From Bacteriovoracia bacterium (GTDB taxonomy: Bacteria; Bdellovibrionota; UBA1018; JBFWNL01): 64,000 nt of DNA. The notes below the pieces were generated by a model that did no database searches, was not told the origin of the DNA, and saw only the letters and a program-made list of their open reading frames with translations. The translations under genes and the position numbers were made by a program. This document shows, piece after piece, positions 14,747 through 27,353 of the stretch. The stretch spans positions 124,808 to 188,807 of the forward strand of contig JBFWNL010000008.1 of NCBI GenBank assembly GCA_050251055.1. Direction: 5' to 3'. Each line of letters begins with the position of its first letter. The stretch's first letter is position 1.

Positions 14747-15550
14747 ATGTTTGAGCAGGAAGACTATCGATATATTTTAAAATCGGAGCTGGAGAACCGC
14801 TGCCGTAAGAATCCTCGATACTCGTTGCGTTCGTTTGCTCGTGATCTAGGACTGAGCTCGGCGCGCCTGAGCGAGATATTGAATCGAAAAGCAGGCTTGT
14901 CCGGAGAGAAAGCACGCGTCGTCGCGAAATCCCTCGGGCTCAACGCGGAAGAGACCGACTTCTTCTATAATCTCGTCGAGGCGGCCCACGCCCGAAGCCG
15001 GATCAAACGCGAGCTTGCCCAAGCCCGACTGCTGAAGTACCAGAAAAATCCTTATCAAAACCTGGAAGTGGATCACTTCCGCGCCGTCTCTGACTGGTAC
15101 CATCTGGCACTCTTGGAGCTCATGACGATCAAAGGATTTCGAAACGATTTGAAATGGATCGCCCGCTCCCTAGACATTCAGGAAACGGAAGCCAAGCTCG
15201 CGATCGAACGCCTAGAGCGCCTGGAGCTGATTCAGCGCAAGGGGAGATCCTGGGCGCCGACCGACGGCTTCTCCACCACTTCGAGCGCCGTACCGTCTGA
15301 AATGATCCGAAAATTTCATCGGCAGATCTTGCAGAAGGCGCTCACTGCGATCGACATGCAATCTATGGAAAGACGCGACCTCGGCGCCATCGTGATGTCC
15401 GTGAAGCGCGCCGACTTGCCGCGCATGAAGGCAAAGATCCGGGAGTTCCGGCGCGCCTTGAATCTGGAGTTTGGCGAGGCGGTGGATAAGGACCGTGTTT
15501 ATTGTTTTTCCACTCAGCTTTTCGAGTTAACGCAAATGGATCGGGAGTAA
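14747..15550 (+). CDS. TIGR02147/DUF4423 family HTH protein
   Basis: NPRYSLRSFARDLGLSSARLSEIL HTH; SDWYHLALLEL, IRKFHRQIL and VYCFSTQLF motifs. Confidence 0.88.
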   Translation: MFEQEDYRYILKSELENRCRKNPRYSLRSFARDLGLSSARLSEILNRKAGLSGEKARVVAKSLGLNAEETDFFYNLVEAAHARSRIKRELAQARLLKYQKNPYQNLEVDHFRAVSDWYHLALLELMTIKGFRNDLKWIARSLDIQETEAKLAIERLERLELIQRKGRSWAPTDGFSTTSSAVPSEMIRKFHRQILQKALTAIDMQSMERRDLGAIVMSVKRADLPRMKAKIREFRRALNLEFGEAVDKDRVYCFSTQLFELTQMDRE

Positions 15551-15555
15551 ACGTA

Positions 15556-16443
15556 ATGTTGTTGAGCCTAATGATGGGATTGATCATGAACACCGGCTGG
15601 ATGGCCGAGATGGCTAACGCCAGCGGGCGCGAGGTCGGCAACGGCGGGGACGCCTATTCCCAAGAATTCATCAGTCTAGGGGGCAGCCTGGCGGCTCGAT
15701 GGCACGAGCTGGGATTCACCGAGGCCCTCCCCGTTAAGCAGGAAGCCTTCCAAAGCGCTACCGAAAAAGTTCGCGTGATATCCACGGAAGAGAAACTAAT
15801 TCTTCGAGGTGAAGAGGTCGACGCCATTAATTATCCACTCTGCAAGGAGGGAGAAACTCCTGAAACGCACCCGTGCGGAAAAATCAGGCTGAATCGATCG
15901 CGCTGGGACGCCCTGAAGGACCGGCGCCACCGTAAAGTCGCCTTGGTGCTTCACGAATACCTCGGCACCCTCGGCACGGACGAGACGCGCTTCGACGACT
16001 ACTACGAAGCCAGCGGACCGCTGTTGGCGAGGCTAAAGAAACTACTGGCGGAAAAACCGCTGGTCGAAGTGAATTTCTCGTGCCGAATCGAAAGATGGGA
16101 CGTCAAAACCAAGGGCACGGTCGTGGCGGCCACGCTCGATACCTACCATGCGCCTTCCGCCGCGGAAATCAAGTTGGGCACCGGTAAGGTCTTTCCGGCG
16201 TACTTTCTTTCGATCGCGAAGGTGGGAAGTGACTTTCTCGCTTCCGTGCAGATTGACCGACTGGAATACCGAATCTATAAGCGACGGGACATCGGGAGCC
16301 CCCTCGAGGGAGAAACCCTGACCGGTGGGTATATTCCGTTCACCGTGAACGGAAAAAATTCGATCCGGGCACTCAATGACCCAGAGCTACAGCTCACTTG
16401 CTACCGAACTTTGGATCAAGTGAATCCGCCCCCGGAACTCTAA
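15556..16443 (+). CDS. secreted hypothetical protein with N-terminal GxEVGNGG motif
   Basis: ATG 15556 with GGGAG RBS; signal peptide followed by SGREVGNGGD; LVLHEYLG motif. Confidence 0.7.
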   Translation: MLLSLMMGLIMNTGWMAEMANASGREVGNGGDAYSQEFISLGGSLAARWHELGFTEALPVKQEAFQSATEKVRVISTEEKLILRGEEVDAINYPLCKEGETPETHPCGKIRLNRSRWDALKDRRHRKVALVLHEYLGTLGTDETRFDDYYEASGPLLARLKKLLAEKPLVEVNFSCRIERWDVKTKGTVVAATLDTYHAPSAAEIKLGTGKVFPAYFLSIAKVGSDFLASVQIDRLEYRIYKRRDIGSPLEGETLTGGYIPFTVNGKNSIRALNDPELQLTCYRTLDQVNPPPEL

Positions 16444-17324
16444 CGGTCTCCCGGAGACTGCGCCAAGTGCCCCATCTTGCCGCTGCGATAATCCGCGAGC
16501 GCTTGGCGGATCTCCCCTTCCGTGTTCATCACGAAGGGTCCGTACCCGACGATCGGTTCATTTAATGGCTCGCCCGCCAAAAAAAGAATTTTCGCGTCTT
16601 CCGTCGCCTCGATCATAAAGCCACTTCCTTCGCGCTCAAACACCGCGAGATCGGATTTCTCTACCACCTGGGCGCCAACCTTCACCGCGCCATCTAGCAC
16701 CAGGAAAGCCGCCGTCCAGCCGGACTTGGCGCTCGCCTCGAACGCCGCGCCTTTCTTTAAACGCACATCCCAGACATCCATCGGGGAAAAAGTCCGCGCC
16801 GGACCCCGGGCATCATTATACTGTCCCGCGATCACGCGCACCTGGCCCCGACCGTCGGCGAGTTCTGCCGTCGGAATCGTGTCCGCCGTGATGCCCTGAT
16901 AGCCAGGTTTCGTCATTTTATCTTTCTTCGGCAAATTCACCCAAAGCTGCACCATCTCGAAAGGCCCTCCCCGCTTCGCGTACTCGCGGCCGTGAAACTC
17001 TTCGTGCACCAAGCCCGCGCCCGCCGTCATCCATTGCACGTCGCCCGGACCGATCTTGCCGCCGGCGCCCGTGGAATCGCGATGCTCGACCTCGCCTTCG
17101 TAAACGATCGTGACCGTTTCAAATCCACGGTGCGGATGCTCGCCCACGCCTAATCGACGTTCGGTGGGCGGGAAGTTTTCCGGCTCCGCGTAGTCGAGTA
17201 AAAGAAAGGGGGACATCTCTTGCGCGATGTCGTTGTAGTTAAATACACCGCGCACATGGAATCCATCGCCCACCCAGTGCTTGTCTTTGCCGCGCTTAAT
17301 AAAGGAGATTTTTTTCATATCCAC
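16440..17324 (-). CDS. pirin family protein
   Basis: PFLLLD, HPHRGFETVT, VQWMTAGAGLVHEE, QLWVNLP and GPFVMNT motifs. Confidence 0.95.
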   Translation of the reverse strand: MDMKKISFIKRGKDKHWVGDGFHVRGVFNYNDIAQEMSPFLLLDYAEPENFPPTERRLGVGEHPHRGFETVTIVYEGEVEHRDSTGAGGKIGPGDVQWMTAGAGLVHEEFHGREYAKRGGPFEMVQLWVNLPKKDKMTKPGYQGITADTIPTAELADGRGQVRVIAGQYNDARGPARTFSPMDVWDVRLKKGAAFEASAKSGWTAAFLVLDGAVKVGAQVVEKSDLAVFEREGSGFMIEATEDAKILFLAGEPLNEPIVGYGPFVMNTEGEIRQALADYRSGKMGHLAQSPGDR

Positions 17325-17565
17325 TAAGATGGGCGCGGAGCGCTATTTGTCAATTACCCCAGAAAAGCGAGGGTTTTTTGGGGTTTGAGAGGTATGACGC
17401 AACTCCGACGTAAGTTAGCAAGTCGCGTAAATATTCACATTGCGTCAGCCACCTGAGTCACAAAAAAACAAATCTGCGTACAGAAAAAAGTTTCCTTCTT
17501 TCTAACTTTCTCTATCATCCATGCCTTCGTTACACGTAAGTAGCGAAAGCTATCCGGGGGGAAGC

Positions 17566-18462
17566 ATGAAAAAAGCAGGATTCATTTACGTCGCCATTTC
17601 GTCGTTCGCTATCGCGCACGCCGCCTACGCTCACACGCAGGAACACGAATCGTTCCTGCCCGAAAACACGCTCGGCGTTGACGAACCGTTCAACTTCCTG
17701 AGCAACATGCCTACCGCGCAGTTCAACGAAATCATCGACATCACGGTCAATCGCTGGAAACCACTCGCTACGGCGTACGGTGGCCAGGTTAACGTCGACT
17801 ATAAATGGGATAGCACCGAAGTGAACGCATATGCCGGTCGTTCCAGCAGCACCTGGACGGTGCAGTTCCACGGCGGACTTGCCCGCCGCGCCGAGATCAC
17901 CCCGGACGGGTTTCAGCTCGTGGTTTGCCACGAACTCGGTCACCTCTTCGGGGGCGCCCCGTTCAAGAACACCCTGAACTACATGACCTCCGAAGGTCAG
18001 GCCGACTACTTCGCCACTTTCGTTTGCTTGCGCGAAATGTGGAAAAACGAGAGTGCGAAGAATGCCGAGGCCCGCGAACAGTTAAAAGCCGAAGAAGTTG
18101 CGGCGTGTGATCAACGTTGGGAGCAGGAAAACGATCGCCACCTTTGTTACCGCACCCTGGCCGCCTCGAATTCCGTGGCGCTTCTGTTCTCGGTACTCGA
18201 GGGCCGCGGAGTCCCGTCCGTGCTCACGCCCAGCACCAGTGTGACGGACGTGACGCAAATGCAACACCCTCCGGCTCAGTGCCGCCTCGACACTTACTTC
18301 AACGCCTCGACTTGCCCCATGGGTTACGACATCCGCAAGATTCCTGGCTACAAAGAGCCAAGTGCCGCCATGCAAGCCAAAGCGATGCAGGAAACATCCT
18401 GCATGGCGGATTCGGACGTACACGCGTACGCCGCCCGGCCGCGTTGCTGGTTTGCAAAATAG
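17566..18462 (+). CDS. secreted zinc metalloprotease (HEXXH, M48-like)
   Basis: signal peptide from ATG 17566; VNAYA, CHELGHLFGG, SEGQADYFA and HPPAQCRLDT motifs. Confidence 0.8.
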   Translation: MKKAGFIYVAISSFAIAHAAYAHTQEHESFLPENTLGVDEPFNFLSNMPTAQFNEIIDITVNRWKPLATAYGGQVNVDYKWDSTEVNAYAGRSSSTWTVQFHGGLARRAEITPDGFQLVVCHELGHLFGGAPFKNTLNYMTSEGQADYFATFVCLREMWKNESAKNAEAREQLKAEEVAACDQRWEQENDRHLCYRTLAASNSVALLFSVLEGRGVPSVLTPSTSVTDVTQMQHPPAQCRLDTYFNASTCPMGYDIRKIPGYKEPSAAMQAKAMQETSCMADSDVHAYAARPRCWFAK

Positions 18463-18485
18463 CGAGAAATCGCCCAATTACCCGG

Positions 18486-19496
18486 TTACGGGCGTACTTG
18501 GTGTTTAAAGAAAATACCGTCGTCACCGAAGGCTGAGGCTAAGAACTCGGACGTCGTGACTACGTCCGCGATGTGCTCCGACTCTTTCAGGAAGCTGACC
18601 GCCAATTCATCGGTGTATTCACCGGTGTAATCAAAGCCGGCGCGCTGCGCGGGCAACGCGTGAATTTCATAGACGGTCGTGCCCACGGGGATCTTGGCGA
18701 AGTCATCGCGCACGTCATGATCGTCGGAGGAAAACTTCAGGTCCCGTCCAGGGACAAAGAAAAGCTGGCGAGGAGCCACGACCGCGGCTGCCTGTTTCCC
18801 GTGCGCGTCTACCAACGCCATGTCCGATGCGAGCAGCTCCTCCGGATACTTGCTGACGGACGAAAAGATCCGGTGCACGAGCTTTTGGCCAAAAGATCCG
18901 CCCACCGGGACGATATTGGACATCGGATGCGCGAAGAAATTGAAATCTTTGCCTTGGCCATCCAGTGAAACCAGCGCCGAGATATTTGCCGACGGCGTGC
19001 CATCGCGCAGGACTTTTAGGGCGAGCCCCGGCGCCACCGGCTTATCACCGGCGGGTCGGTAGGTGAGCGAAAGCCGCAGTAGCGCGCATTCCGCGCCCTG
19101 GAACACGCCGGTGTACTTCAAATGGGCGGGATCGCGCGGCACGATCTTCACCTGAGCCATCGCGCCCCGGCGGTGCAGGTATTTCACCCACCCTTCGGGG
19201 GCATAGTCGGAGAAGCGATCGCGCTTATTGGAGATCTTCTGCCGCCACATACTGTAAACCTGGGGGAGGCCGAGCTTCCCGTACTCTGGCAATTTCGCGT
19301 GCACGGTAGAGGTAACGTTATCCCACAAGGTCTTCTGCTTTTCGCAGGCGCTCAAGGACTCGTAATTAGGCGCGATGCTCGCCGTCGTGCGCGTATAAGC
19401 AGGATCGGATTCCGATCCCGCGAACGCGTACGCCAGGCTCGCGCCCACCGCCGCCAACAATGCCAACGAAGCCACCTTCTTGCCCGCAATGGTCAT
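18486..19496 (-). CDS. secreted catalase-fold (heme-dependent catalase-like superfamily) protein
   Basis: start moved to ATG 19496; N-terminal hydrophobic helix; YLHRRG, YTGVFQG, LLRLS and PGLALKVLRDG motifs resemble catalase-related AOS/HPL proteins. Confidence 0.65.
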   Translation of the reverse strand: MTIAGKKVASLALLAAVGASLAYAFAGSESDPAYTRTTASIAPNYESLSACEKQKTLWDNVTSTVHAKLPEYGKLGLPQVYSMWRQKISNKRDRFSDYAPEGWVKYLHRRGAMAQVKIVPRDPAHLKYTGVFQGAECALLRLSLTYRPAGDKPVAPGLALKVLRDGTPSANISALVSLDGQGKDFNFFAHPMSNIVPVGGSFGQKLVHRIFSSVSKYPEELLASDMALVDAHGKQAAAVVAPRQLFFVPGRDLKFSSDDHDVRDDFAKIPVGTTVYEIHALPAQRAGFDYTGEYTDELAVSFLKESEHIADVVTTSEFLASAFGDDGIFFKHQVRP

Positions 19497-19513
19497 ACCG
19501 TCTGGTCTCGCAA

Positions 19514-21547
19514 CTAGGGCTTCCAAGGATTGAAAGCGGTTTCCAACCCTTGTACGTGCTTTTTGAGTTCCGGCATGTGGCGCACGATCACGCGTTCGAG
19601 GAAGCCCTCGGCGTCGATCCACTCGATGCCCGACTCGGTGTAGTACTCCGGACGGTAGTTGTCCGTATAGAAGCGGTCGGCCATCAGGCGGCGCGAGGCC
19701 ATCACGATGAAGATCTGGAACATCGTTTCGCCGAAACCGAAGTTCTGCGGACGAACTTCCTCGCTGAGCGTACCGACGAGCAGGTCGATCATCTCGACGT
19801 TGTCGTTGCCGTTCTCGTCCTTGCCGTAGACTTCGTAAAATTTGGCCAAGATCGCTTCCTGGCGCGCGTCCGCGGCCTTGCCGCCCGGGAAGAAGTCGGC
19901 GTACTTGGTGATCGGCTTCAGATTGATGCCGCGGCGGAACTGATTGTAGCGCGGAACACCGCGCTCGCGGTCGCGCATGATATCCACCATGCCCAGATCC
20001 ATGATGCCGTGGCCGGGGATCGGCAGCTCCTGCATGAACTTAGGGAAATTGTTCAGCACGAGCTGACCCGGATGCTGGGTACCGAAGGAATAGAAGAGAT
20101 CCTTCAGGTCATGGCTAGCCATGATGCCGTAGCTCTTATCGTTACGCGTGTCTAGGAAAGCCACCTTCTCGATCGAATCCGGCTTTCCGGCGTGCTTGAA
20201 TTCCAGCGCTTCCGGCAATAGCGAGTGCAGCCGGTAAACCGAGGTAAACTCCTCGGTGATGCTGAAGGGCACGCCATAGTCGTTGCGCTTGTCGCCGACC
20301 ACGCCGCCGATCAGGTAACCCGAGCTCGTGCCGCGAATCCAATCCGCGCGGTTGAGATAAGGAATCCGGCGCAGGGCCTTCGTCCAAGAGTTCGGGTTGA
20401 TCAAGCCATACCAGTTGGCGTACATGGCGCGTTTAAGCGTGTCGTTCGCCAGGATCGCCGGCGTCCATTCCACGGTGTGAATCTTTGCCATGACGGCGGC
20501 GTTGATCAGGCGCGCGACCTGGAAGACCTGCTCATCAATGCCGCGGGCACTGAGCACGAGCTTCTGGCTTCCGTTCTTCCATTGATACTTTCCGTTGCCC
20601 AACGCGGTGACGTGCTTTTTCCAAAGCATTTCCGCGATGGCGTTATGCTCCTTCACGAACAGGTGGTGGAGCATGCTGAGGCCCACCCACCAGTTGTCGC
20701 GGAAGCCCGTCACTTCGTGGCCACGGTTTTGCTTGTTGTTCGCGGCGTTCAGTTCCTGGTCGTAAGGCAGGAGCTCACGGCCATTCTGGACCACGGTCTT
20801 CATCTTGCCTTCGGACATCGCGCGCACGGAAAGCTGCTCGCGCAGGTTGCTGCCGTAGATCTGCGAGCCATCCCACCAGTGCGTGACGTCGTTCAGCGTC
20901 GTCTTGCCGAACTCGCGCTTGTACTGGGTGGAATCGGCGGTGTTTTCCTTGGTGCGCTCGACGAGGGAAGCGTCACCGGCACCGGGGACCTGGTAAGCGT
21001 TCTTATCCATGTTGCGGCCGTGCGTAAGCCAGTCGTGGTTCATGAACTGGATCCAACTCGCTGCGAGCATGTTGAGGAACGGCACGGGCTTGAACTCGCC
21101 ACGGGTGAAGAACTTCTTAGACACTTCCGAAGGATTCGGCGTCATGAGGTTCGCGGCTGCGTTCTGGTCGATGAAGCTCGGAGGAACGTTGCGGCCGAAA
21201 GCCACGCCAGCGGCGCCCGCCAGGGGACGAGTCAGATCGGTGCAAGTGCCATCCGCGCTGCGAAAGCGGGGATTATTGGCAGAACAATCCGTTATCTTAT
21301 ATCCGGCGTAGCCGGAGTAATCGACGTGCGGGTCGTGCAGGTTGTTATTCAGCAACCCGTCTCGGATCTGCTTGAGCACCATCAGGCCGCCCACGGTTCC
21401 TTTGCTCGACCAGGTGGTCCAAGGTGTTTCTTCTTCGGCGGCGGCCATCGGCGCGCGCGCCGGCGCCGACCAAACTTGGCCGACTTGGGCCAACTGTAGG
21501 CATTGCACCACAACTAACGTCAACGAGATCGACGGTTTCTTCAACAT
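19514..21547 (-). CDS. secreted heme peroxidase-cyclooxygenase family enzyme, fatty acid alpha-dioxygenase-like
   Basis: ASWIQFMNHDWLTH, WWDGSQIYGS, AKIHTVEWT, EEFTSVYRLHSLLPE, RDRERGVPRYNQFRR and MASRRLMADRFYT motifs; GGAG RBS. Confidence 0.88.
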   Translation of the reverse strand: MLKKPSISLTLVVVQCLQLAQVGQVWSAPARAPMAAAEEETPWTTWSSKGTVGGLMVLKQIRDGLLNNNLHDPHVDYSGYAGYKITDCSANNPRFRSADGTCTDLTRPLAGAAGVAFGRNVPPSFIDQNAAANLMTPNPSEVSKKFFTRGEFKPVPFLNMLAASWIQFMNHDWLTHGRNMDKNAYQVPGAGDASLVERTKENTADSTQYKREFGKTTLNDVTHWWDGSQIYGSNLREQLSVRAMSEGKMKTVVQNGRELLPYDQELNAANNKQNRGHEVTGFRDNWWVGLSMLHHLFVKEHNAIAEMLWKKHVTALGNGKYQWKNGSQKLVLSARGIDEQVFQVARLINAAVMAKIHTVEWTPAILANDTLKRAMYANWYGLINPNSWTKALRRIPYLNRADWIRGTSSGYLIGGVVGDKRNDYGVPFSITEEFTSVYRLHSLLPEALEFKHAGKPDSIEKVAFLDTRNDKSYGIMASHDLKDLFYSFGTQHPGQLVLNNFPKFMQELPIPGHGIMDLGMVDIMRDRERGVPRYNQFRRGINLKPITKYADFFPGGKAADARQEAILAKFYEVYGKDENGNDNVEMIDLLVGTLSEEVRPQNFGFGETMFQIFIVMASRRLMADRFYTDNYRPEYYTESGIEWIDAEGFLERVIVRHMPELKKHVQGLETAFNPWKP

Positions 21548-21584
21548 ATGGGTAGGCTCCTAGCGAGATTTACCGGATTTTTAT

Positions 21585-22478
21585 TTATTTCTTTTCGTTT
21601 TCTTTTGGCTCTTCTTTGGCCAGATCCTTTTCGTGGCGTTCGTAATAGAAACCCACGTCTTTCGGATCGCTCGGGTTGATGAGCATCAACTCGTTCGTGG
21701 TGGCCTTCGGCTTCCAGTTCACGATATCGACGAAGAACGCGATCTTCGCTTCGAGCTTTGCGGTGTTGGCTTCGTCAGCTTCCACGGCCTTCATCACGAA
21801 GAGGCCCGGAACGGATTCCGAAAGCGCGAACGTTCCCTTGGCGCCTTCCCAATTGAAGACGACCTGGCCATTTGCGAACGTTTCCGTGTTGTAGCTCTTG
21901 TTCAACAGGTAATCGAGCCCGGACGAACGCGTAGTGCCCAGGAATTTGCCCACGACGTAGTTTTCCCAGGTGGAGTTCCAGTTGCCTTTGAAATGGATCG
22001 TTTCGACGGCTTCTTTCTTACCCTTCTCGCGACGGGTGAGCGTGGCGCCCTTGATCTGATCGGGCTTCTTCAAGGTCAAGACATCGTAAACCACGTCGGT
22101 CTTCGGCACGATCGCGCCGCCGGCCACCGTGAGGGGGCGCAATACGTAGGTGTAGTCGTTGCCTTTGTCCATCTGGTAGGCGTGCATGCGGTACACCCAT
22201 TTGGTGATCGCGCTGCGCTTCTTATCGGAAAAAATATCGGTGATCACCGTGTCGGTGAACGGGAGGACTTCGTACTCGGCCAGCACGGCGTAGTAACGAT
22301 CGGCCTTGTTCGGGTCCTTTTTAATGAGCAAGGTCATGCTGTACGTGGACAGCGGCCCAAATTTGAAAAGCGAGCTATCGCCGCGGAATGAACCTTCCGG
22401 CAGGTCCGCCAGCGCCGAAGCAGGAACCAAGGCGGAAACCATGGCGATTAAACTTAAAACTTTGAACGCTTTGAACAT
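21585..22478 (-). CDS. secreted hypothetical protein, first gene of the dioxygenase operon
   Basis: ATG 22478 with GGAG RBS; signal peptide ending ALA; 37 bp from the dioxygenase start. Confidence 0.75.
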   Translation of the reverse strand: MFKAFKVLSLIAMVSALVPASALADLPEGSFRGDSSLFKFGPLSTYSMTLLIKKDPNKADRYYAVLAEYEVLPFTDTVITDIFSDKKRSAITKWVYRMHAYQMDKGNDYTYVLRPLTVAGGAIVPKTDVVYDVLTLKKPDQIKGATLTRREKGKKEAVETIHFKGNWNSTWENYVVGKFLGTTRSSGLDYLLNKSYNTETFANGQVVFNWEGAKGTFALSESVPGLFVMKAVEADEANTAKLEAKIAFFVDIVNWKPKATTNELMLINPSDPKDVGFYYERHEKDLAKEEPKENEKK

Positions 22479-23004
22479 AAAACTCCAATCGTTAGGCGCC
22501 CCGAATACTTGTCTTTTATGGTCGAAATGTAAGTACACTATTACGACGCGTTGCGCAATACAGAGTTAAAACGACCTCTCGCGAGCACAATGTATTGATA
22601 TTATAAGATTTTATTACTATCGGTGCCGATTGGCCCAGCTGCTGTTAGGAAAACTGCGAATACCCCATAGCGGTTGGACTACCAACTTCGGCCGAAGTTT
22701 TTTAGAAAACAGCGAATCATATGACGGCCACATTTGAGCGGTCTTCCAAACGCGAAAACACATGCCCGCCGCCGAGTCGCAAGCACCCGGAAGAACGACC
22801 TCCGGAGGGCCGATCGAGAAAAGCAGCTGATTCCTAATGACCGTGGAAAACGGGCATCCATTCGCCCAGGTGATTTCCAATAATGAAAACTCAGCCCGGC
22901 GTTCTGCTTCTACGCGGGTCAAATGCGACACTGTCTGGTGCTCTCCTCACTGCTTATAGAAATGGAAGAAGCCGTCACCGCCCACTTCCTTGCGTCCAAA
23001 GTAT

Positions 23005-23034
23005 GAAAGGAAATCGAATCTACTCTCGTCGGGC
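23005..23034 (+). promoter_or_regulatory. putative ECF sigma promoter, copy 1
   Basis: GAAAGGA-N15-CGTCGGGC before the GGGGAG RBS and ATG 23052. Confidence 0.65.
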
Positions 23035-23051
23035 TCAACGGGGAGCAATAA

Positions 23052-24425
23052 ATGAACGGGTTGGCTCAAAACGAAAATGGCAGCATTCTGCTTTGGGCAA
23101 GCATCGCCGGGAGCGTGCTCGTGAGTGGCCTGTTTTGGGGACAATCTCAGTTAGGTTGGATGCAAAAAGGCGCAGCTCGAATGAAAGAACAAGCAGCCTT
23201 GCAAAAACTAAAGCGCGAAATCGAGATGGCCTTGGCCCAGCCAACTTCTTGCGCCCACGCTCTCAAGAATCAGGCCGTAGCCACCGCCGCAGGCGAACAG
23301 CGGGCCGCAAATATCGCACTCGACGGAGGCCGGCGGCTTTCTCCAGGATTCGCCGATGGGGGAATACGCGTCGCCGACGCCCAACTCGAAACCCTCCAAG
23401 AAACCCGTCCGGGAGAATTTCAAACGGCGCTGGTCATTGAATTAAACAAGAACCGATTGTTACCGGGTGCGCCCACTGGGCGGATGAGTTTTTTTATTAC
23501 TTTGAAACCGAATTCACTGGGAACCGGAGTCGAGCAATGCCAACTGGGAAGTCCACGGGAAATACGCCGAGATGAAAATTGTCCCGAAGGACGCTACCTC
23601 GCAGGTCTGCAAACCGACCTCTCACCGGTTTGCGCGCCGGTCGACTTAACGGCCTTGGAATCTCAGTTCCAATGCCGTGAAAATGAATTTCTGACGGGAG
23701 TACAGGGCGGTATTGCCCAATGCCAACCCCTCCCTCTACCCGATCCGACGGCGTCGCCAGCCCCTAGCCCCAGCCCTTCCGCGACGCCGTCGGATCACCC
23801 CAATCCTTTGTCCGCCTGCTCAGCCACTCCCTGGTACAAGCAGTTTGTTATCCTCTACGAGGACCAAAAGCCGGACGGGAGTTGGAAAATCAATATGGAG
23901 CTCAGCGCTTGGCCACGCGGTTATCAGGCCCGCTCGGACCGAGGTTATATGTTGGGCGAACTGGGTACTTGGGATCTTGACTGTGGTGGGAACTGCCCAT
24001 CCCACGCGGCGGCGATGCTCTATTCAGTACACGGATACTCAGCACCTCAGATGGATGAAGTAGCGCCGATTGTCCAAATCAACTACGGAGATGCCGGCCC
24101 AATTCCCTTCCGTATCCACCCTGTACTTCGGCGGGGGTGCCCATTTGGACCGGGGGACATCTCTCCCAACACTACGGCATTTCGTCCAGGCCAGAACGAT
24201 CCTTGCTCAGGATTCGACATTTACTTTGCTCGCCAGTTCGGCAATTTCTCCGACCGCGGGTGGGAGCAAGTGCCCGGTCCCTACACGATCTGGAGTTTTC
24301 CCGGGATTCTTGCCCTCTGCCAGCAAAACCAAGGCCCAGCGTGCTCCTATCTGAACAATCCCCCGCCCGGGAAACGCGTGCGCATCTTCTGGAAAAAGTT
24401 CCAATGGGAGGATTGCCAGCCATGA
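23052..24425 (+). CDS. large PilX/GspK-like pilin-related protein with Cys repeats and a variable C-terminal domain
   Basis: NENG|SILLWASI hydrophobic N-terminus lacking E5; CAHALKNQ; two CxxxxxLxG...C repeats; Pro/Ser linker. Confidence 0.65.
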   Translation: MNGLAQNENGSILLWASIAGSVLVSGLFWGQSQLGWMQKGAARMKEQAALQKLKREIEMALAQPTSCAHALKNQAVATAAGEQRAANIALDGGRRLSPGFADGGIRVADAQLETLQETRPGEFQTALVIELNKNRLLPGAPTGRMSFFITLKPNSLGTGVEQCQLGSPREIRRDENCPEGRYLAGLQTDLSPVCAPVDLTALESQFQCRENEFLTGVQGGIAQCQPLPLPDPTASPAPSPSPSATPSDHPNPLSACSATPWYKQFVILYEDQKPDGSWKINMELSAWPRGYQARSDRGYMLGELGTWDLDCGGNCPSHAAAMLYSVHGYSAPQMDEVAPIVQINYGDAGPIPFRIHPVLRRGCPFGPGDISPNTTAFRPGQNDPCSGFDIYFARQFGNFSDRGWEQVPGPYTIWSFPGILALCQQNQGPACSYLNNPPPGKRVRIFWKKFQWEDCQP

Positions 24426-25825
24426 ATCAAGCGGGATTCACGCTCGTCGAAACCACGGTGGCCGGTACGGTGCTCGCCCTGCTGTTGACGGTGACCCTCA
24501 ATGGACAGAGCCAAATCGCGCAATCGGCAGCGCGGCTTGATCACGGCCGCGGAAAAATGGATTCGGCTTTCAAGAACTGGCAGTTAATGTTCGACCCCGA
24601 GCTATGTACCCGCTTGCTAGCGGGCCAACCCATCCGACCCGATCCGGGAACGGCGGTGACGGTCACCGGCAGCTTGGAATCGGTGATAGATTTGCGCGCC
24701 GGTGCGCAATTCTCGGAAGATCAGCAGCTCGCCCGCGCGGAACTTCGCACCGACGCATTAGCCCACGAAGGCGACGAGCTTTCCACCTACCGGGCACGCT
24801 TGAACCTGATCGGTTCGGCCGAGCAACGCTTAGAATCAGTCCCGCTTTTTGTCGAAGCCGGTACCGAAGATAGGCGAATCCGCCGCTGTGGAATCTATAT
24901 CGAAGATACCAACCCTTTACAGGGAGAAGCCTGTGCTTCAGCTGCGGAAGTGATCGTAGGATTTAACTCCGACGGTCAGATCGTCTGTCGGCCCGCGACC
25001 GCAGAAGCCCTACCCCTCATTACATGTCCTGCGGACCACTACTTAGTTCGCATCGAAAACGGCGAACCCACCTGCCGGCCTATGCCACAGGCGGCAGCCG
25101 CTGACCCTTGGATTGCCACATTCAACTTTGAGCTGAGTTGCCGCTGGCGTGACGGTGTCCCAGTAGTCCGTGGCGCTGGTCCTCGCCAAAGCTCGATAAC
25201 GGGGGGCTGGCAGCAAGGATCCTACTCGAATCGCCCAGGCAATGACCCTGGATGGGAAACCCCGCCAATCGAATTTCCGCCTGCCGCGAGATTCCTGGTG
25301 GGCGAGATCGCGATGGAAGCCCCAAATTTGCAAATTACTCAAGACCCCCAGACCCAAAACTACTCGTATCCCAATGACCGCCCTTGGCGTATCGGCTATA
25401 ACCCCACCGATTTATCGTTGATTCTCGAAGTACGTAGCGCCAATGGCACTTCGGGATGGGGATCCATATTCGATGGAAAGTTTTACGGGCTTTCCAGTAG
25501 TCCGTTGGGCCCGCACGCCAACTACTTCCAAGACATGAACTCGTTTTATGGCCTTGGCAAGTTTGGAGACTATAAGATGTTGGGTGCAGAACCCACGCGC
25601 GTCGCCCACACTCCATTCACCTACTATCTTTCCACGCAAGATCAGGTATTGCGCATTAACGCGCAAGCACCCTGTTACGGCGACCCGACCGATACCACCC
25701 AACCCCCCAGTCGGGTCTCCGTACGGGTGCAATTCTGCCGTGGTCTCTCTCATGACCCGCAAAGCAAATGTTACCCGCAAGGACGTCAAATACCGACCCC
25801 GCCTGAGGGTTCTTATGCCGACTAA
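24422..25825 (+). CDS. large type IV prepilin-like protein
   Basis: start moved to ATG 24422 (ATGA overlap); MNQAG|FTLVE prepilin cleavage/methylation motif; CTRLLAGQ; two Cys repeats. Confidence 0.8.
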   Translation: MNQAGFTLVETTVAGTVLALLLTVTLNGQSQIAQSAARLDHGRGKMDSAFKNWQLMFDPELCTRLLAGQPIRPDPGTAVTVTGSLESVIDLRAGAQFSEDQQLARAELRTDALAHEGDELSTYRARLNLIGSAEQRLESVPLFVEAGTEDRRIRRCGIYIEDTNPLQGEACASAAEVIVGFNSDGQIVCRPATAEALPLITCPADHYLVRIENGEPTCRPMPQAAAADPWIATFNFELSCRWRDGVPVVRGAGPRQSSITGGWQQGSYSNRPGNDPGWETPPIEFPPAARFLVGEIAMEAPNLQITQDPQTQNYSYPNDRPWRIGYNPTDLSLILEVRSANGTSGWGSIFDGKFYGLSSSPLGPHANYFQDMNSFYGLGKFGDYKMLGAEPTRVAHTPFTYYLSTQDQVLRINAQAPCYGDPTDTTQPPSRVSVRVQFCRGLSHDPQSKCYPQGRQIPTPPEGSYAD

Positions 25826-27353
25826 ACGGAGCTCTGGATACACATTGGTGGAAATGATGGTGGGCGTGGCCGTACTTGGAATCGCTTCCGCCGGCATTTC
25901 GACGATATTGGTACGACAAAATGGATTCTCAAGTTGGATCGGAAAGAAATCTGGACAGCTCGGCTTCTTGCACCAGCTCCAGTACGACCTTCTTTCGCAG
26001 GATCGCTGTACGTTCGCGCTGATGGGGCAACCGCTTCCCCCCGTGGGCACCGCCGAAATCGAATTTGAGTCTCGGAGCAACGCCGTCTACCGCCGCGGCT
26101 GGCGTGAATCGGGTGTCACCTTAGAATCTTTCACTATCGAGCGTGGCCCCCGCATCCGCCAAAGCTCGTCGGGAGATTACTACATGTCGCGACTTCGCAT
26201 TCGCACGTCAATGGCCGGCGATGCCGGCCAAGCCGACAAAAAAAATCGCGACCAAACTTTTCAGGTAGTCGTACAAAAGGAAGCGGGCGCCGATCGGGTG
26301 CTCAGCTGCGGATACGGCACCTCGGAAGACCCGGTGATCTGCCCCACCGGAAAATTTCTCGCTGGCTTCGCGATGGACGGGGCGCCTATCTGCCGACCGG
26401 CCGATTTGAACGTAACGCTCAATTGTCCGCCGGGAAAATACTTGGCGGGATTCAACGCGAACTACCCCATTTGCTATCCGTTGCCGGGCCAAGGGGTGGT
26501 GGACCGCAACCCGACGAACCGGCCTCAACCGCCTCCGCCCGTCCGCGTCGACGGGGGATGGGGACCATGGGGAGCGTGCCTAAACGGATCCCAAACCCGC
26601 GTATGCAACCAGCCCCCGCCGGCGAATGGCGGCGCGGACTGTAGCGGTGCCGCAACTCGCAGCTGCGTGGCCGGGGGACCATCGCTGGACCCCATGGAAT
26701 ACACCGTTCCGGGAACTTACACTTACACGGTGCCGGCCGGCATTACGGCGCAAGTACGGATCGTCGTGGTTGGAGCCGGGGCCAGCGGAAACGGTGGAGA
26801 CAAAAAAGACGGCAAAGGAGGGAAAGCCGGCAACTTGATGACCGAAACCCGCACAGTTCAAGGGCCTGCTACTTACACGGTGGTGGTCGGTCAAGGAGGC
26901 ATGATGTCTCGATCCGGTCCCGATAACGGTTACTACGGAAATCCGGGTACCGAATCGAAGTTCGACGGCCTAACGGCAACTGGTGGCGTGGTGGTCCGAA
27001 ACGGCACTGACACCTCCCAGGGCGGCAAGGATCATTGCGCGGTAGGAAACATCGCCGCCTTAGGCCAAGACAGCCCCCTCGGCTCGGGAGGAGGTCTCTC
27101 GTGCGTATGTCACTACGCCTGCGGAAATAGTGGGAGTGCGCCGAACGAAATCGACAACTATGCGCCCGTCTACGACCCCGAACGGATGCATCACTACCGG
27201 GGTTGCGTGCGCGACGGATTCATATCCGAACACCGGGGCGACACCATGCACGGCTGCCCCGGTACGCGACCGGGTGCAGGCGGTGGCGGCGGCAGCAACG
27301 GCAATCGCGGCGGCGCTGGCGCGCATGGCTACGTTGGAATTTTCCCAATTTGA
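25815..27353 (+). CDS. large type IV prepilin-like adhesin with thrombospondin type-1 repeat and glycine-rich domain
   Basis: start moved to ATG 25815; SSG|YTLVE; CTFALMGQ; two Cys repeats; VDGGWGPWGAC...QTRVCNQPPPANGGADC; YTVPGTYTYTVPAG...VVGAGASG. Confidence 0.8.
   Translation: MPTKRSSGYTLVEMMVGVAVLGIASAGISTILVRQNGFSSWIGKKSGQLGFLHQLQYDLLSQDRCTFALMGQPLPPVGTAEIEFESRSNAVYRRGWRESGVTLESFTIERGPRIRQSSSGDYYMSRLRIRTSMAGDAGQADKKNRDQTFQVVVQKEAGADRVLSCGYGTSEDPVICPTGKFLAGFAMDGAPICRPADLNVTLNCPPGKYLAGFNANYPICYPLPGQGVVDRNPTNRPQPPPPVRVDGGWGPWGACLNGSQTRVCNQPPPANGGADCSGAATRSCVAGGPSLDPMEYTVPGTYTYTVPAGITAQVRIVVVGAGASGNGGDKKDGKGGKAGNLMTETRTVQGPATYTVVVGQGGMMSRSGPDNGYYGNPGTESKFDGLTATGGVVVRNGTDTSQGGKDHCAVGNIAALGQDSPLGSGGGLSCVCHYACGNSGSAPNEIDNYAPVYDPERMHHYRGCVRDGFISEHRGDTMHGCPGTRPGAGGGGGSNGNRGGAGAHGYVGIFPI

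Follow-up and report, generated by a model that had tools for sequence, protein, structure and literature searches.

A conserved pairing of an alpha-dioxygenase homologue with a truncated catalase-fold protein suggests an extracytoplasmic fatty-acid alpha-oxidation module in Bdellovibrionota

Three adjacent genes of a Bacteriovoracia bacterium, here called A, B and C, raise the question of what a homologue of the plant alpha-dioxygenases (alpha-DOX) does in a bacterial envelope, in the company of a catalase-like protein and of a protein that had been taken for an orphan. The genes lie in a window of 64,000 nucleotides, the whole stretch of DNA that was analysed. The open reading frame (ORF) list reproduced the layout first described for positions 18486–22478, with all three genes on one strand and gaps of exactly 37 bp between A and B (21584–21548) and exactly 17 bp between B and C (19513–19497). 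The same list offers longer options, starting at GTG 22538 for A and at GTG 19622 for C, the latter overlapping B by 109 nt. We prefer the ATG starts because GGAG precedes the start of A and AGGAG that of B, and because they give signal-peptide-like N-termini and agree with the lengths of homologues, which are mostly 320–340 aa in the C family and 263–316 aa in the A family. The promoter-like site upstream of A is the sole one within positions 18200–23100 and, since shuffled sequence yielded a mean of 2.1 such sites, is recommended by its position alone (Table 1).

Table 1. Positions of the three genes and of the promoter-like site in the window.
Feature	Position	Strand	Description
Gene A	22478..21585	(-)	297 aa, ATG start; no Pfam/NCBIfam family
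Gene B	21547..19514	(-)	677 aa, alpha-dioxygenase homologue, haem peroxidase-cyclooxygenase superfamily
Gene C	19496..18486	(-)	336 aa, truncated catalase-fold protein, no Pfam model
Promoter-like site TCGGCA-18-TATAAT	22600..22629	(-)	~120 nt 5' of gene A; 10/12 consensus positions

The sequence of B shows strong homology to plant alpha-DOX, and B would be expected to share the activity of these enzymes. It matches PF03098 (An_peroxidase) over residues 95–665 with an E value of 7.7e-97, and the closest solved structures are the alpha-DOX enzymes of Arabidopsis (4hhr, E 2.5e-83) and rice (4kvj, E 4.1e-83), aligned over residues 90–675. Lactoperoxidase at 9e-15 and cyclooxygenases at 5e-6 or worse come next among the PDB matches. 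These searches uphold the initial annotation of B as a plant-type alpha-DOX, and all four of the signature motifs named in it were found, namely HDWLTH (H171), AKIHT (H357), VYRLH (Y438 and H441) and SRRL (R619 and R620). In rice alpha-DOX, as set out in the available text of PMC8720084, H157 and H382 are the distal and proximal haem histidines, Y379 is the catalytic residue, H311 and R559 bind the carboxylate, T316 positions C2, and W315, F375, F549, F552 and A556 belong to the channel. H171, H441 and Y438 of B align to rice H157, H382 and Y379, and none of the three varies among 60 homologues; the same is true of H357, R620, T362, W361, F434, F610, F613 and A617. At the position of rice I553 the 60 homologues carry Ile (49), Val (5) or Ala (6). 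B is the sole An_peroxidase gene found in the source genome.

The breadth of the An_peroxidase family allows another reading, in which B performs different haem chemistry, at another carbon or as a plain peroxidase, and B and C form an envelope pair for peroxide defence or oxidant production. The catalase-like fold of C would fit such a pair, as would the finding of no canonical catalase (PF00199) in the genome, which is 93.5% complete. However, cyclooxygenases and peroxidases match B far worse than alpha-DOX does, and the carboxylate His/Arg, the C2-positioning Thr and the channel residues, with the roles given in the available part of PMC8720084, are those found invariant above. Together with the features of C and the linked Mpo1-like genes described below, which point to 2-hydroxy fatty acids, this makes other chemistry improbable.

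The association of B with C recurs in many genomes. Of the 68 loci gathered with the C profile, 65 have B no more than 2 kb from C, with the genes divergent in 46, co-oriented in 8, convergent in 2 and fused in 9; the fusions are Gammaproteobacterial loci in which a single ORF of ~917 aa holds both. A strong C was present in 38 genomes of a phylum sample of 401, and 37 of these also carry B, the genes being at most 2.1 kb apart in 31 of the 37 and non-adjacent in 6. In another 21 of the 401 genomes weaker C-family genes occur but B does not, so the association of the C family with alpha-DOX is not exclusive. The one B gene from the same order for which no C was apparent is followed immediately by a divergent C-family gene (hhalign probability 96.6%), in which Arg replaces the distal His and the C-terminal His is kept. 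Conservation of the pairing had been put forward at the outset as the point on which the proposal could fail; the pairing is conserved, which excludes a chance association, and the adjacency and natural fusions robustly demonstrate that B and C are functionally coupled. That A, B and C are mere neighbours without a common function might be argued from the fact that no RNA run was found to contain this DNA. The conservation and the fusions contradict this idea, as do the common strand, the short gaps and the recurrence of the A-B-C order in a further locus (L025), and we regard it as barely credible. Taken jointly with the extracytoplasmic alpha-oxidation reading developed below, we consider it reasonably probable that the three genes form one operon. 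Our literature searches found no prior description of an alpha-DOX paired with a member of the C family.

Sequence searches with C gave no match in Pfam, in NCBIfam or among PDB sequences, the last also with a profile search. PF00199 matched neither C of the window at E 0.1 nor any of 105 diverse members of the family, which comprises 2293 representative clusters, and hhalign gave C a non-significant link to catalases (probability at most 5.8%). The AF2 model (pLDDT 90.4) is more informative. Its best Foldseek match is 3e4y (E 6e-5, probability 0.99, with low TM-scores of 0.32–0.35 among the matches), VIA gave a best Z of 10.4 and 179 chains at Z of at least 8, and all of the Foldseek matches listed and all 50 of the VIA matches listed are catalases or catalase-related. 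In the ESM Atlas, the model reached a TM-score of 0.51 to a cluster named "putative catalase family peroxidase". C is predicted from this model to have the catalase core β-barrel fold.

Residues K105, H108, R141, S143, K161, R263 and H332 of C are invariant in 67 of 67 family members, and the first four are near-invariant across the 105 diverse representatives. VIA places residue 103 of the model on residue 70 of human catalase, which sets H108 on His75, and a low-stringency, non-significant hhalign alignment puts KYLH on RVVH, RLS on RFS and GLALK on GFAVK. We take K105, H108, R141 and S143 to occupy the positions of catalase R72, H75, R112 and S114. From the structure alignment and the conservation, C keeps the distal His, the supporting Ser, the propionate-binding Arg and a Lys of the distal side, and has Leu or Ile in place of the distal Asn. 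Its last residue, 336, aligns to residue 353 of human catalase, 410 of HPII, 332 of the E. faecalis catalase and 289 of the MAP protein, in each case presumably ahead of the proximal Tyr; the hhalign alignment with catalase stops even sooner, at the NFF motif after β8. The proximal Tyr helix that follows the barrel is absent from C, and the last 40 residues contain no conserved Tyr. The C-terminal end carries an invariant FF(K/R)H motif, and H332 is the only invariant candidate haem ligand in those 40 residues.

Characterised enzymes of the catalase-related group that transform hydroperoxides have the proximal Tyr as their haem ligand, and catalase chemistry needs both this Tyr and the Asn, which argues against a peroxide-defence role for C. 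The initial annotation of C as a catalase-fold partner thus stands as to the fold, but not as to a catalase-related haemoprotein of the typical type, and haem binding by C is putative because the Tyr helix, the distal Asn and any PF00199 match in the family are missing. The same absences would suit a C that binds no haem or catalyses nothing itself and assists B instead, for membrane docking, fatty-acid hand-over, or haem delivery or holding, with A and C both acting as lipid or haem helpers. Exported haem-b enzymes, as B would be, require a route to haem, the predicted fold of A is also of a ligand-binding type, and the divergent gene of the same order has Arg for the distal His with the C-terminal His kept. 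Yet the four residues at catalase haem and distal pocket positions are conserved in type, and unless C binds haem or has a catalytic site, it is difficult to account for their invariance in the 67 members and near-invariance in the 105 representatives; moreover, the invariant C-terminal His could stand in for Tyr as the ligand. We consider a purely accessory C unlikely, though a serious contender.

Visual inspection and a crude script rule served to judge signal peptides, and signal-peptide-like N-termini were seen in all three proteins, as had been claimed. A begins with MFKAFKVLSLIAMVSALVPASALA, with predicted cleavage before DLPEG; B has KK followed by a hydrophobic stretch, and C a hydrophobic stretch up to AYA. 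By the crude rule such N-termini occur in 54 of 57 members of the A family and 49 of 52 of the C family. Among B homologues they were found in 46 of 60, 31 of the 46 with a lipobox-like Cys, and the pair Cys88/Cys102 is invariant in 47 of 47. From these signal or lipoprotein N-termini, and for B also from the Cys pair, A and B are predicted to be exported, and C to be exported or anchored. The crude rule detected no signal peptide at the N-termini of the Gammaproteobacterial B-C fusions, so the term "secreted" does not hold for the system as a whole.

Gene A has no significant match in Pfam or NCBIfam, and its best PDB-sequence hit has an E value of ~1. The description of A as an orphan does not survive the finding of 59 other homologues, with a member in 36 of the 68 C-profile loci, and of a predicted fold: the AF2 model (pLDDT 87.6) is all-β and appears to form two tandem eight-stranded calycin-like barrels. 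Foldseek returned nothing at E below 1e-3 and gave probabilities of 0.96–1.0 for AimA, nitrophorin 4 and erythrocruorin linker barrels, and VIA gave a best Z of 9.4 for residues 24–169 only and 6–7 for the second half, values close to its stated background of 7–8. On this generic fold match, A probably binds a hydrophobic substrate or product.

A further gene connects these loci to 2-hydroxy fatty acids. An Mpo1-like gene (PF06127) occurs in 24 of the 68 C-profile loci; as a rule it sits immediately upstream of C in the same orientation. According to the available text of PMC10398889, yeast Mpo1 is an Fe2+-dependent dioxygenase that acts on 2-hydroxy fatty acids in a one-step alpha-oxidation. 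The PF06127 genes beside B-C link the module with 2-hydroxy fatty acids and with CoA-independent alpha-oxidation, and they lend support to the earlier suggestion that 2-hydroxy fatty acids are produced. The operon of the window lacks this gene; the single copy of the genome is on another contig.

Our favoured reading, held with moderate confidence, is that A-B-C form an envelope-located, O2-driven module for alpha-oxidation of fatty acids that uses neither CoA nor ATP. Exported B, most of whose relatives appear to be lipoproteins, would bind the carboxylate of a free fatty acid through His357 and Arg620, and a haem-generated Tyr438 radical would let O2 add to C2, yielding a 2-hydroperoxy fatty acid, as homology to alpha-DOX suggests. 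C would work on or with this unstable product, most likely turning the 2-hydroperoxide into the 2-hydroxy acid or else controlling how it decays to the C(n-1) aldehyde, and A would bind the hydrophobic substrate or product. In many related loci, the Mpo1-like 2-hydroxy-fatty-acid dioxygenase would take the pathway to its end, the C(n-1) acid. The trio resembles an undescribed oxygen-driven shortening or hydroxylation of fatty acids outside the cytoplasm. More tentatively, and with considerable doubt on our part, the C family may be an unrecognised branch of the catalase fold that lacks the Tyr helix, binds haem through the C-terminal His and serves as the 2-hydroperoxide partner of bacterial alpha-DOX, in a full cycle with Mpo1-like enzymes that trims or detoxifies fatty acids from prey or environment in the Bdellovibrionota envelope. 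Such a cycle would run from fatty acid through 2-hydroperoxide and 2-hydroxy acid to the C(n-1) acid, independently of CoA, ATP and nicotinamide cofactors. The label "probable predator" given to the source organism is conjectural; its genome is labelled only as belonging to the same phylum as the genomes with the closest homologues, titled Bdellovibrionota.

Comparison with known systems sets the module apart in several respects. The best structural match to C is the 33-kDa catalase-related protein of Mycobacterium avium subsp. paratuberculosis (3e4w, 3e4y), on which the model superimposes with an rmsd of 4.6 Å over 203 residues. Both are small proteins that amount to the catalase core and lack the C-terminal helical domain, but their identity is 13–16%, with no detectable sequence similarity, and residue 336 of C falls on residue 289 of a chain of 301, so that C ends before what we take to be the segment with the Tyr ligand. 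Also among the Foldseek matches of C is 1u5u, the AOS domain of the coral allene oxide synthase-8R-lipoxygenase fusion (AOS-LOX). Like this fusion, the ~917-aa Gammaproteobacterial protein joins a catalase-fold domain to a fatty-acid dioxygenase. In the coral protein, however, the oxygenase is a non-haem-iron lipoxygenase, the catalase domain is N-terminal and the AOS haem is ligated by Tyr, whereas the Gammaproteobacterial fusion has a haem alpha-DOX and a C-terminal catalase-fold domain, and C has no equivalent Tyr.

A parallel in gene arrangement is the 10S-dioxygenase/lyase pair of Nostoc punctiforme, reportedly the work of Brash et al. in 2014. As described in the available part of PMC13049297, a linoleate 10S-dioxygenase is accompanied there by a separately encoded catalase-related 10S-hydroperoxide lyase; both systems thus pair a bacterial haem dioxygenase of the peroxidase-cyclooxygenase superfamily with a protein of catalase fold that has its own gene, and in both the two proteins presumably work in tandem, with a fatty-acid hydroperoxide as the compound acted on. 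As far as that text goes, the window pair differs in that its dioxygenase is of the alpha-DOX type, with attack at C2 and acceptance of saturated acids, in that C lacks the proximal Tyr helix, the distal Asn and recognition by the Pfam catalase model, and in that the proteins carry export signals and have natural B-C fusions. B shares its family, its catalytic, haem and carboxylate residues and a similar length of catalytic domain with the alpha-DOX of Arabidopsis (4hhr) and rice (4kvj), CalDOX and LepDOX, as these are presented in the available text of PMC8720084. Unlike these enzymes, B has a predicted signal peptide, with mostly lipoproteins among its relatives, and an invariant Cys pair that is absent from the aligned Arabidopsis alpha-DOX. 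It also has a dedicated catalase-fold partner, of a kind that the available text of PMC8720084 does not mention for plant or cyanobacterial alpha-DOX. Finally, the PF06127 genes beside B-C resemble yeast Mpo1, but in the yeast route, as outlined in the available part of PMC10398889, the 2-hydroxy acid arises from sphingolipid breakdown rather than from an alpha-DOX.

Genes A (a two-barrel protein), B (an alpha-dioxygenase, alpha-DOX, homologue) and C (its catalase-fold partner) were annotated initially as a co-oriented trio, and we recovered both the shared minus strand and the gaps of 37 bp between A and B and 17 bp between B and C. The ATG of A is preceded by GGAG and that of B by AGGAG, and a promoter-like site is located ~120 nt 5' of A. 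This is the only such site in 18200-23100, where shuffled sequences averaged 2.1 sites, so that its position alone argues for it. Since the flanking genes all lie on the plus strand (on one side an ORF of 313 aa that ends at 18462, on the other ORFs beginning at 22883 and 23052), A-B-C forms a self-contained unit. The N-termini of A, B and C resemble export signals by eye and by a crude script, in agreement with the signal peptides first proposed for all three proteins.

Coordinates of the genes discussed. Positions without prefix are in the window; L-numbers denote loci from other genomes and G000 the window's genome.
Feature	Coordinates	Strand	Description
Gene A	22478-21585	minus	ORF, 297 aa
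Gene B	21547-19514	minus	ORF, 677 aa
Gene C	19496-18486	minus	ORF, 336 aa
DUF4423 protein gene	14747-15550	plus	neighbour of the trio
Pirin gene	16440-17324	minus	Pirin + Pirin_C; neighbour of the trio
313-aa ORF	17521-18462	plus	convergent with C; Peptidase_M48 match below threshold only
Pilin-like gene	25548-27353	plus	N-terminal methylation motif and Gly_rich_2 domain; neighbour of the trio
Divergent C-family gene	L003:3381-4382		same-order genome
Protease genes	L006:1353-2747, L007:2436-3755		PDZ_4 + Peptidase_S41
Mpo1-like genes	L016:5491-5934, L022:5452-5895, L025:1636-2097		PF06127; beside the B-C pair
Mpo1-like gene of the window's genome	G000:C4:111833-112231		locus L081
MBL-fold hydrolase genes	L024:1464-2234, L029:2852-3628, L059:4976-5932		near the B-C pair

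The assignment of the central enzyme to the alpha-DOX type was borne out. B matches Pfam An_peroxidase with an E-value of 7.7e-97, and its best matches among solved structures are the alpha-DOX enzymes of Arabidopsis (4hhr, E 2.5e-83) and rice (4kvj, 4.1e-83), aligned over residues 90-675; lactoperoxidase (9e-15) and then the cyclooxygenases (5e-6 or worse) are weaker structural relatives. In the excerpted text of Kim et al. (PMC8720084), the rice enzyme has H157 and H382 as distal and proximal haem residues, Y379 as the catalytic residue, H311 and R559 holding the carboxylate, T316 positioning C2 and a channel whose residues include W315, F375, F549, F552, I553 and A556. Each residue of that list has a match in B in the alignment to the alpha-DOX structures. 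Of 13 positions checked, 12 never vary among the 60 sequences compared (B and 59 homologues from related loci), and the one matching I553 holds I, V or A. Unlike the aligned sequence of Arabidopsis alpha-DOX, B also contains a Cys88/Cys102 pair, invariant in 47 of 47 sequences, that would fit a disulfide in an exported protein, and most Bdellovibrionota homologues carry lipoprotein-type signals as scored by the crude script. No other An_peroxidase gene was found in the window's genome. Judged from its sequence, B is an alpha-DOX homologue with all the residues required to oxygenate C2 of a fatty acid anchored by its carboxylate.

The pairing of B with C is conserved. Among 68 loci from species-representative genomes, retrieved with the C profile, B is no more than 2 kb from C in 65, with the two genes divergent in 46, co-oriented in eight, convergent in two and fused in nine; B was not found in the other three (L026 and L072, which have full flanks, and L076, a fragment). 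The fused loci encode B and C as a single ORF of ~917 aa, under record titles naming Allohahella, Thalassolituus, Marinibactrum, Ketobacter, Teredinibacter and two MAGs, and the databases call these proteins 'peroxidase family protein' or 'hypothetical protein'. The Gammaproteobacterial fusions start at a conserved WVTW segment and have no visible signal peptide. An exhaustive profile search also returned An_peroxidase-C fusions of 919 aa and 1356 aa, the latter with the C domain at its end, while a word-based search for longer forms gave three proteins, two of ~917 aa with PF03098 and one of 589 aa with no Pfam domain recorded.

We also sampled 401 genomes of the window's phylum independently, defining a strong C by E<1e-90; B is present in 41 genomes, strong C in 38 and both in 37. 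B and C are at most 2.1 kb apart in 31 of these 37 and on other contigs or ~200 kb apart in six, and the four genomes with B and no strong C include one with a weak partial B match only. Because related genomes are not independent, we give counts instead of a test; the link nevertheless spans deep B clades that are merely 35-45% identical. On the basis of adjacency and fusion, B and C are functionally linked. Another of the four, a same-order genome in which the HMM found no C, was considered as a case of B without C and rejected, since hhalign (probability 96.6%, E 6e-10) reveals that the gene directly downstream of B is a divergent member of the C family, with Arg for the distal His and with R141, S143, K161 and the C-terminal His kept. 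One further genome of the phylum sample (G198) has a single C but two B paralogues, which belong to different deep clades.

C has no sequence match in Pfam, NCBIfam or the PDB, profile searches included. Its AlphaFold2 model, built from 59 sequences, has a pLDDT of 90.4 and a pTM of 0.88, and the top Foldseek match is the Mycobacterium avium 33-kDa catalase-related protein (3e4y, E 6e-5, probability 0.99), followed by chanoclavine synthase, catalases and coral allene oxide synthase, with TM-scores of just 0.32-0.35. VIA-align gave a Z of 10.4 with an rmsd of 4.6 Å over 203 residues and found 179 chains with Z of at least 8; all 50 of the matches listed are catalases or catalase-related. The ESM Atlas returned a cluster of 329 aa named 'putative catalase family peroxidase' (TM 0.51) and one of 914 aa named 'Animal haem peroxidase', which matches C over its C-terminal part (TM 0.68 by query). 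A sequence-level link to catalases was not supported, as none of the searches was significant: hhalign probabilities for a first C profile were at most 0.3% with both a canonical catalase and three catalase-related proteins of ~400 aa, a more diverse profile at low stringency reached 5.8% and 1.6%, the PDB sequence search gave two chance-level matches (E 1.6) with the first profile and none with the more diverse one, and the Pfam scan found catalase matches in 0 of 105 family members. The fold assignment of C is therefore drawn from predicted structure only.

Structural alignment places residue 103 of the C model on residue 70 of human catalase, so that H108 falls on His75, the distal His. The low-stringency hhalign alignment, non-significant at 5.8%, agrees on these anchors, with KYLH on RVVH, RLS on RFS and GLALK on GFAVK. 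Seven residues (K105, H108, R141, S143, K161, R263 and H332) are shared without exception by the 67 family members from the loci, and they hardly vary among 105 diverse representatives with 26-54% identity to C. The last residue of C aligns to residue 353 of human catalase, 410 of HPII, 332 of the E. faecalis catalase and 289 of the M. avium subsp. paratuberculosis protein, and hhalign places the end of C still earlier; the proximal Tyr of those catalases presumably lies just beyond this point. The distal-Asn position is occupied by Leu in 59 members and Ile in eight. The predicted structure thus suggests that C is a catalase barrel with its distal and propionate-side residues retained and its Tyr helix lost. 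The C terminus carries an invariant D..FF(K/R)H motif; H332 may be a haem ligand, or C may be without haem. The catalase-fold partner of the initial annotation hence stands as a predicted fold, but a catalase-family sequence match, the proximal Tyr helix and the distal Asn are missing.

The C family is large, uncharacterised and structurally unusual, with 2293 representative clusters at 50% identity (E<=1e-3), or 621 at E<=1e-30, in the exhaustive profile search; annotated matches carry the name 'hypothetical protein'. Weaker C-family genes (E 1e-72 to 3e-6) occur without any B in 21 of the 401 phylum genomes, including family f4 of the window's order and others, and some C-family members therefore work without an alpha-DOX. 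Elsewhere, the C domain follows DUF2515 in fused proteins of 573-607 aa (among P0262, P0315, P0201 and P0190), and it occurs in a 1546-aa protein that carries eukaryotic PTHB1 domains and may be either an artefact of gene modelling or a eukaryotic member of the family. In two same-order genomes a protease gene adjoins a C-family gene; one of these C genes follows B, and the other is a stand-alone C-like gene beside an acyl-CoA dehydrogenase.

Clustering of all ORFs in the 68 loci revealed recurrent neighbours. An Mpo1-like gene (PF06127, '2-hydroxy-palmitic acid dioxygenase') is present in 24 loci, in each case above the Pfam cut-off, and usually lies directly upstream of C on the same strand, and an MBL-fold hydrolase (Lactamase_B_2/B_3) of ~257 aa is near the pair in 26. 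The window contains neither, and the single Mpo1-like gene of its genome is on another contig. According to the excerpted text of PMC10398889, yeast Mpo1 converts a 2-hydroxy fatty acid to the C(n-1) acid in one step, and the title of Seki et al. 2019, cited there, describes it as Fe2+-dependent. The B-C neighbourhood recurrently holds a 2-hydroxy-acid dioxygenase family.

A, originally called an orphan secreted protein, proved to have relatives: 59 other proteins match at E<=0.001, with record titles naming Bdellovibrionaceae, Pseudobdellovibrio and Elusimicrobia MAGs, and the family is present in 36 of the 68 loci (13 close orthologues and 23 distant paralogues), none of them Gammaproteobacterial. 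A gave nothing significant in Pfam or NCBIfam, nor did its paralogues in Pfam. Its model is all-beta (pLDDT 87.6); Foldseek gave no match with E<1e-3, the high-probability rows being the two-lipocalin AimA, nitrophorin 4 and erythrocruorin linker barrels, and VIA against diverse eight-stranded barrels gave Z up to 9.4 for residues 24-169 and 6-7 for residues 170-285. We read the model as two calycin-like barrels, which may point to a ligand-binding role.

The record titles of the closest homologues are Bdellovibrio, Pseudobdellovibrio, Bacteriovoracaceae and Halobacteriovorax, and their genomes are labelled as the same phylum. In a quick tree the window's B falls inside the main Bdellovibrionota clade, beside a Bacteriovoracaceae MAG (SH-aLRT 97). 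B was found in just two of 60 relatives searched within the window's own order, and this patchy distribution could reflect gene transfer. Public read runs containing this DNA comprise three DNA runs, all from one landfill-metagenome study, and no RNA runs were found.

We propose that B would make 2-hydroperoxy fatty acids and that C would act on them, most likely by reducing them to the 2-hydroxy acid, the Mpo1-like substrate; alternatively, C might otherwise steer decay of the 2-hydroperoxide to the aldehyde. A would carry the lipid, and in Bdellovibrionota the module would work outside the cytoplasm. If true, this would extend to alpha-dioxygenases the logic of a fatty-acid dioxygenase with a catalase-fold partner, which to our knowledge has so far been seen in the coral AOS-lipoxygenase fusion and the Nostoc 10S-DOX/lyase pair, and would offer a first clue to the function of a large family that has no Pfam model. 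It would also mean fatty-acid shortening outside the cytoplasm that needs O2 only, with a bearing on lipid handling by predatory and hydrocarbon-degrading bacteria, and biocatalysis would have an interest in exported alpha-DOX systems of bacteria and in their natural fusions, with fatty aldehydes, 2-hydroxy acids and odd-chain acids as possible products. A full-text literature search found no description of a bacterial alpha-DOX with a catalase-fold partner or fusion; the excerpt of Kim et al. reports alpha-DOX-like sequences in Proteobacteria and other phyla and itself mentions no partner (PMC8720084). The nearest precedent is the Nostoc 10S-DOX with its catalase-related lyase, as described in the excerpted text of PMC13049297.
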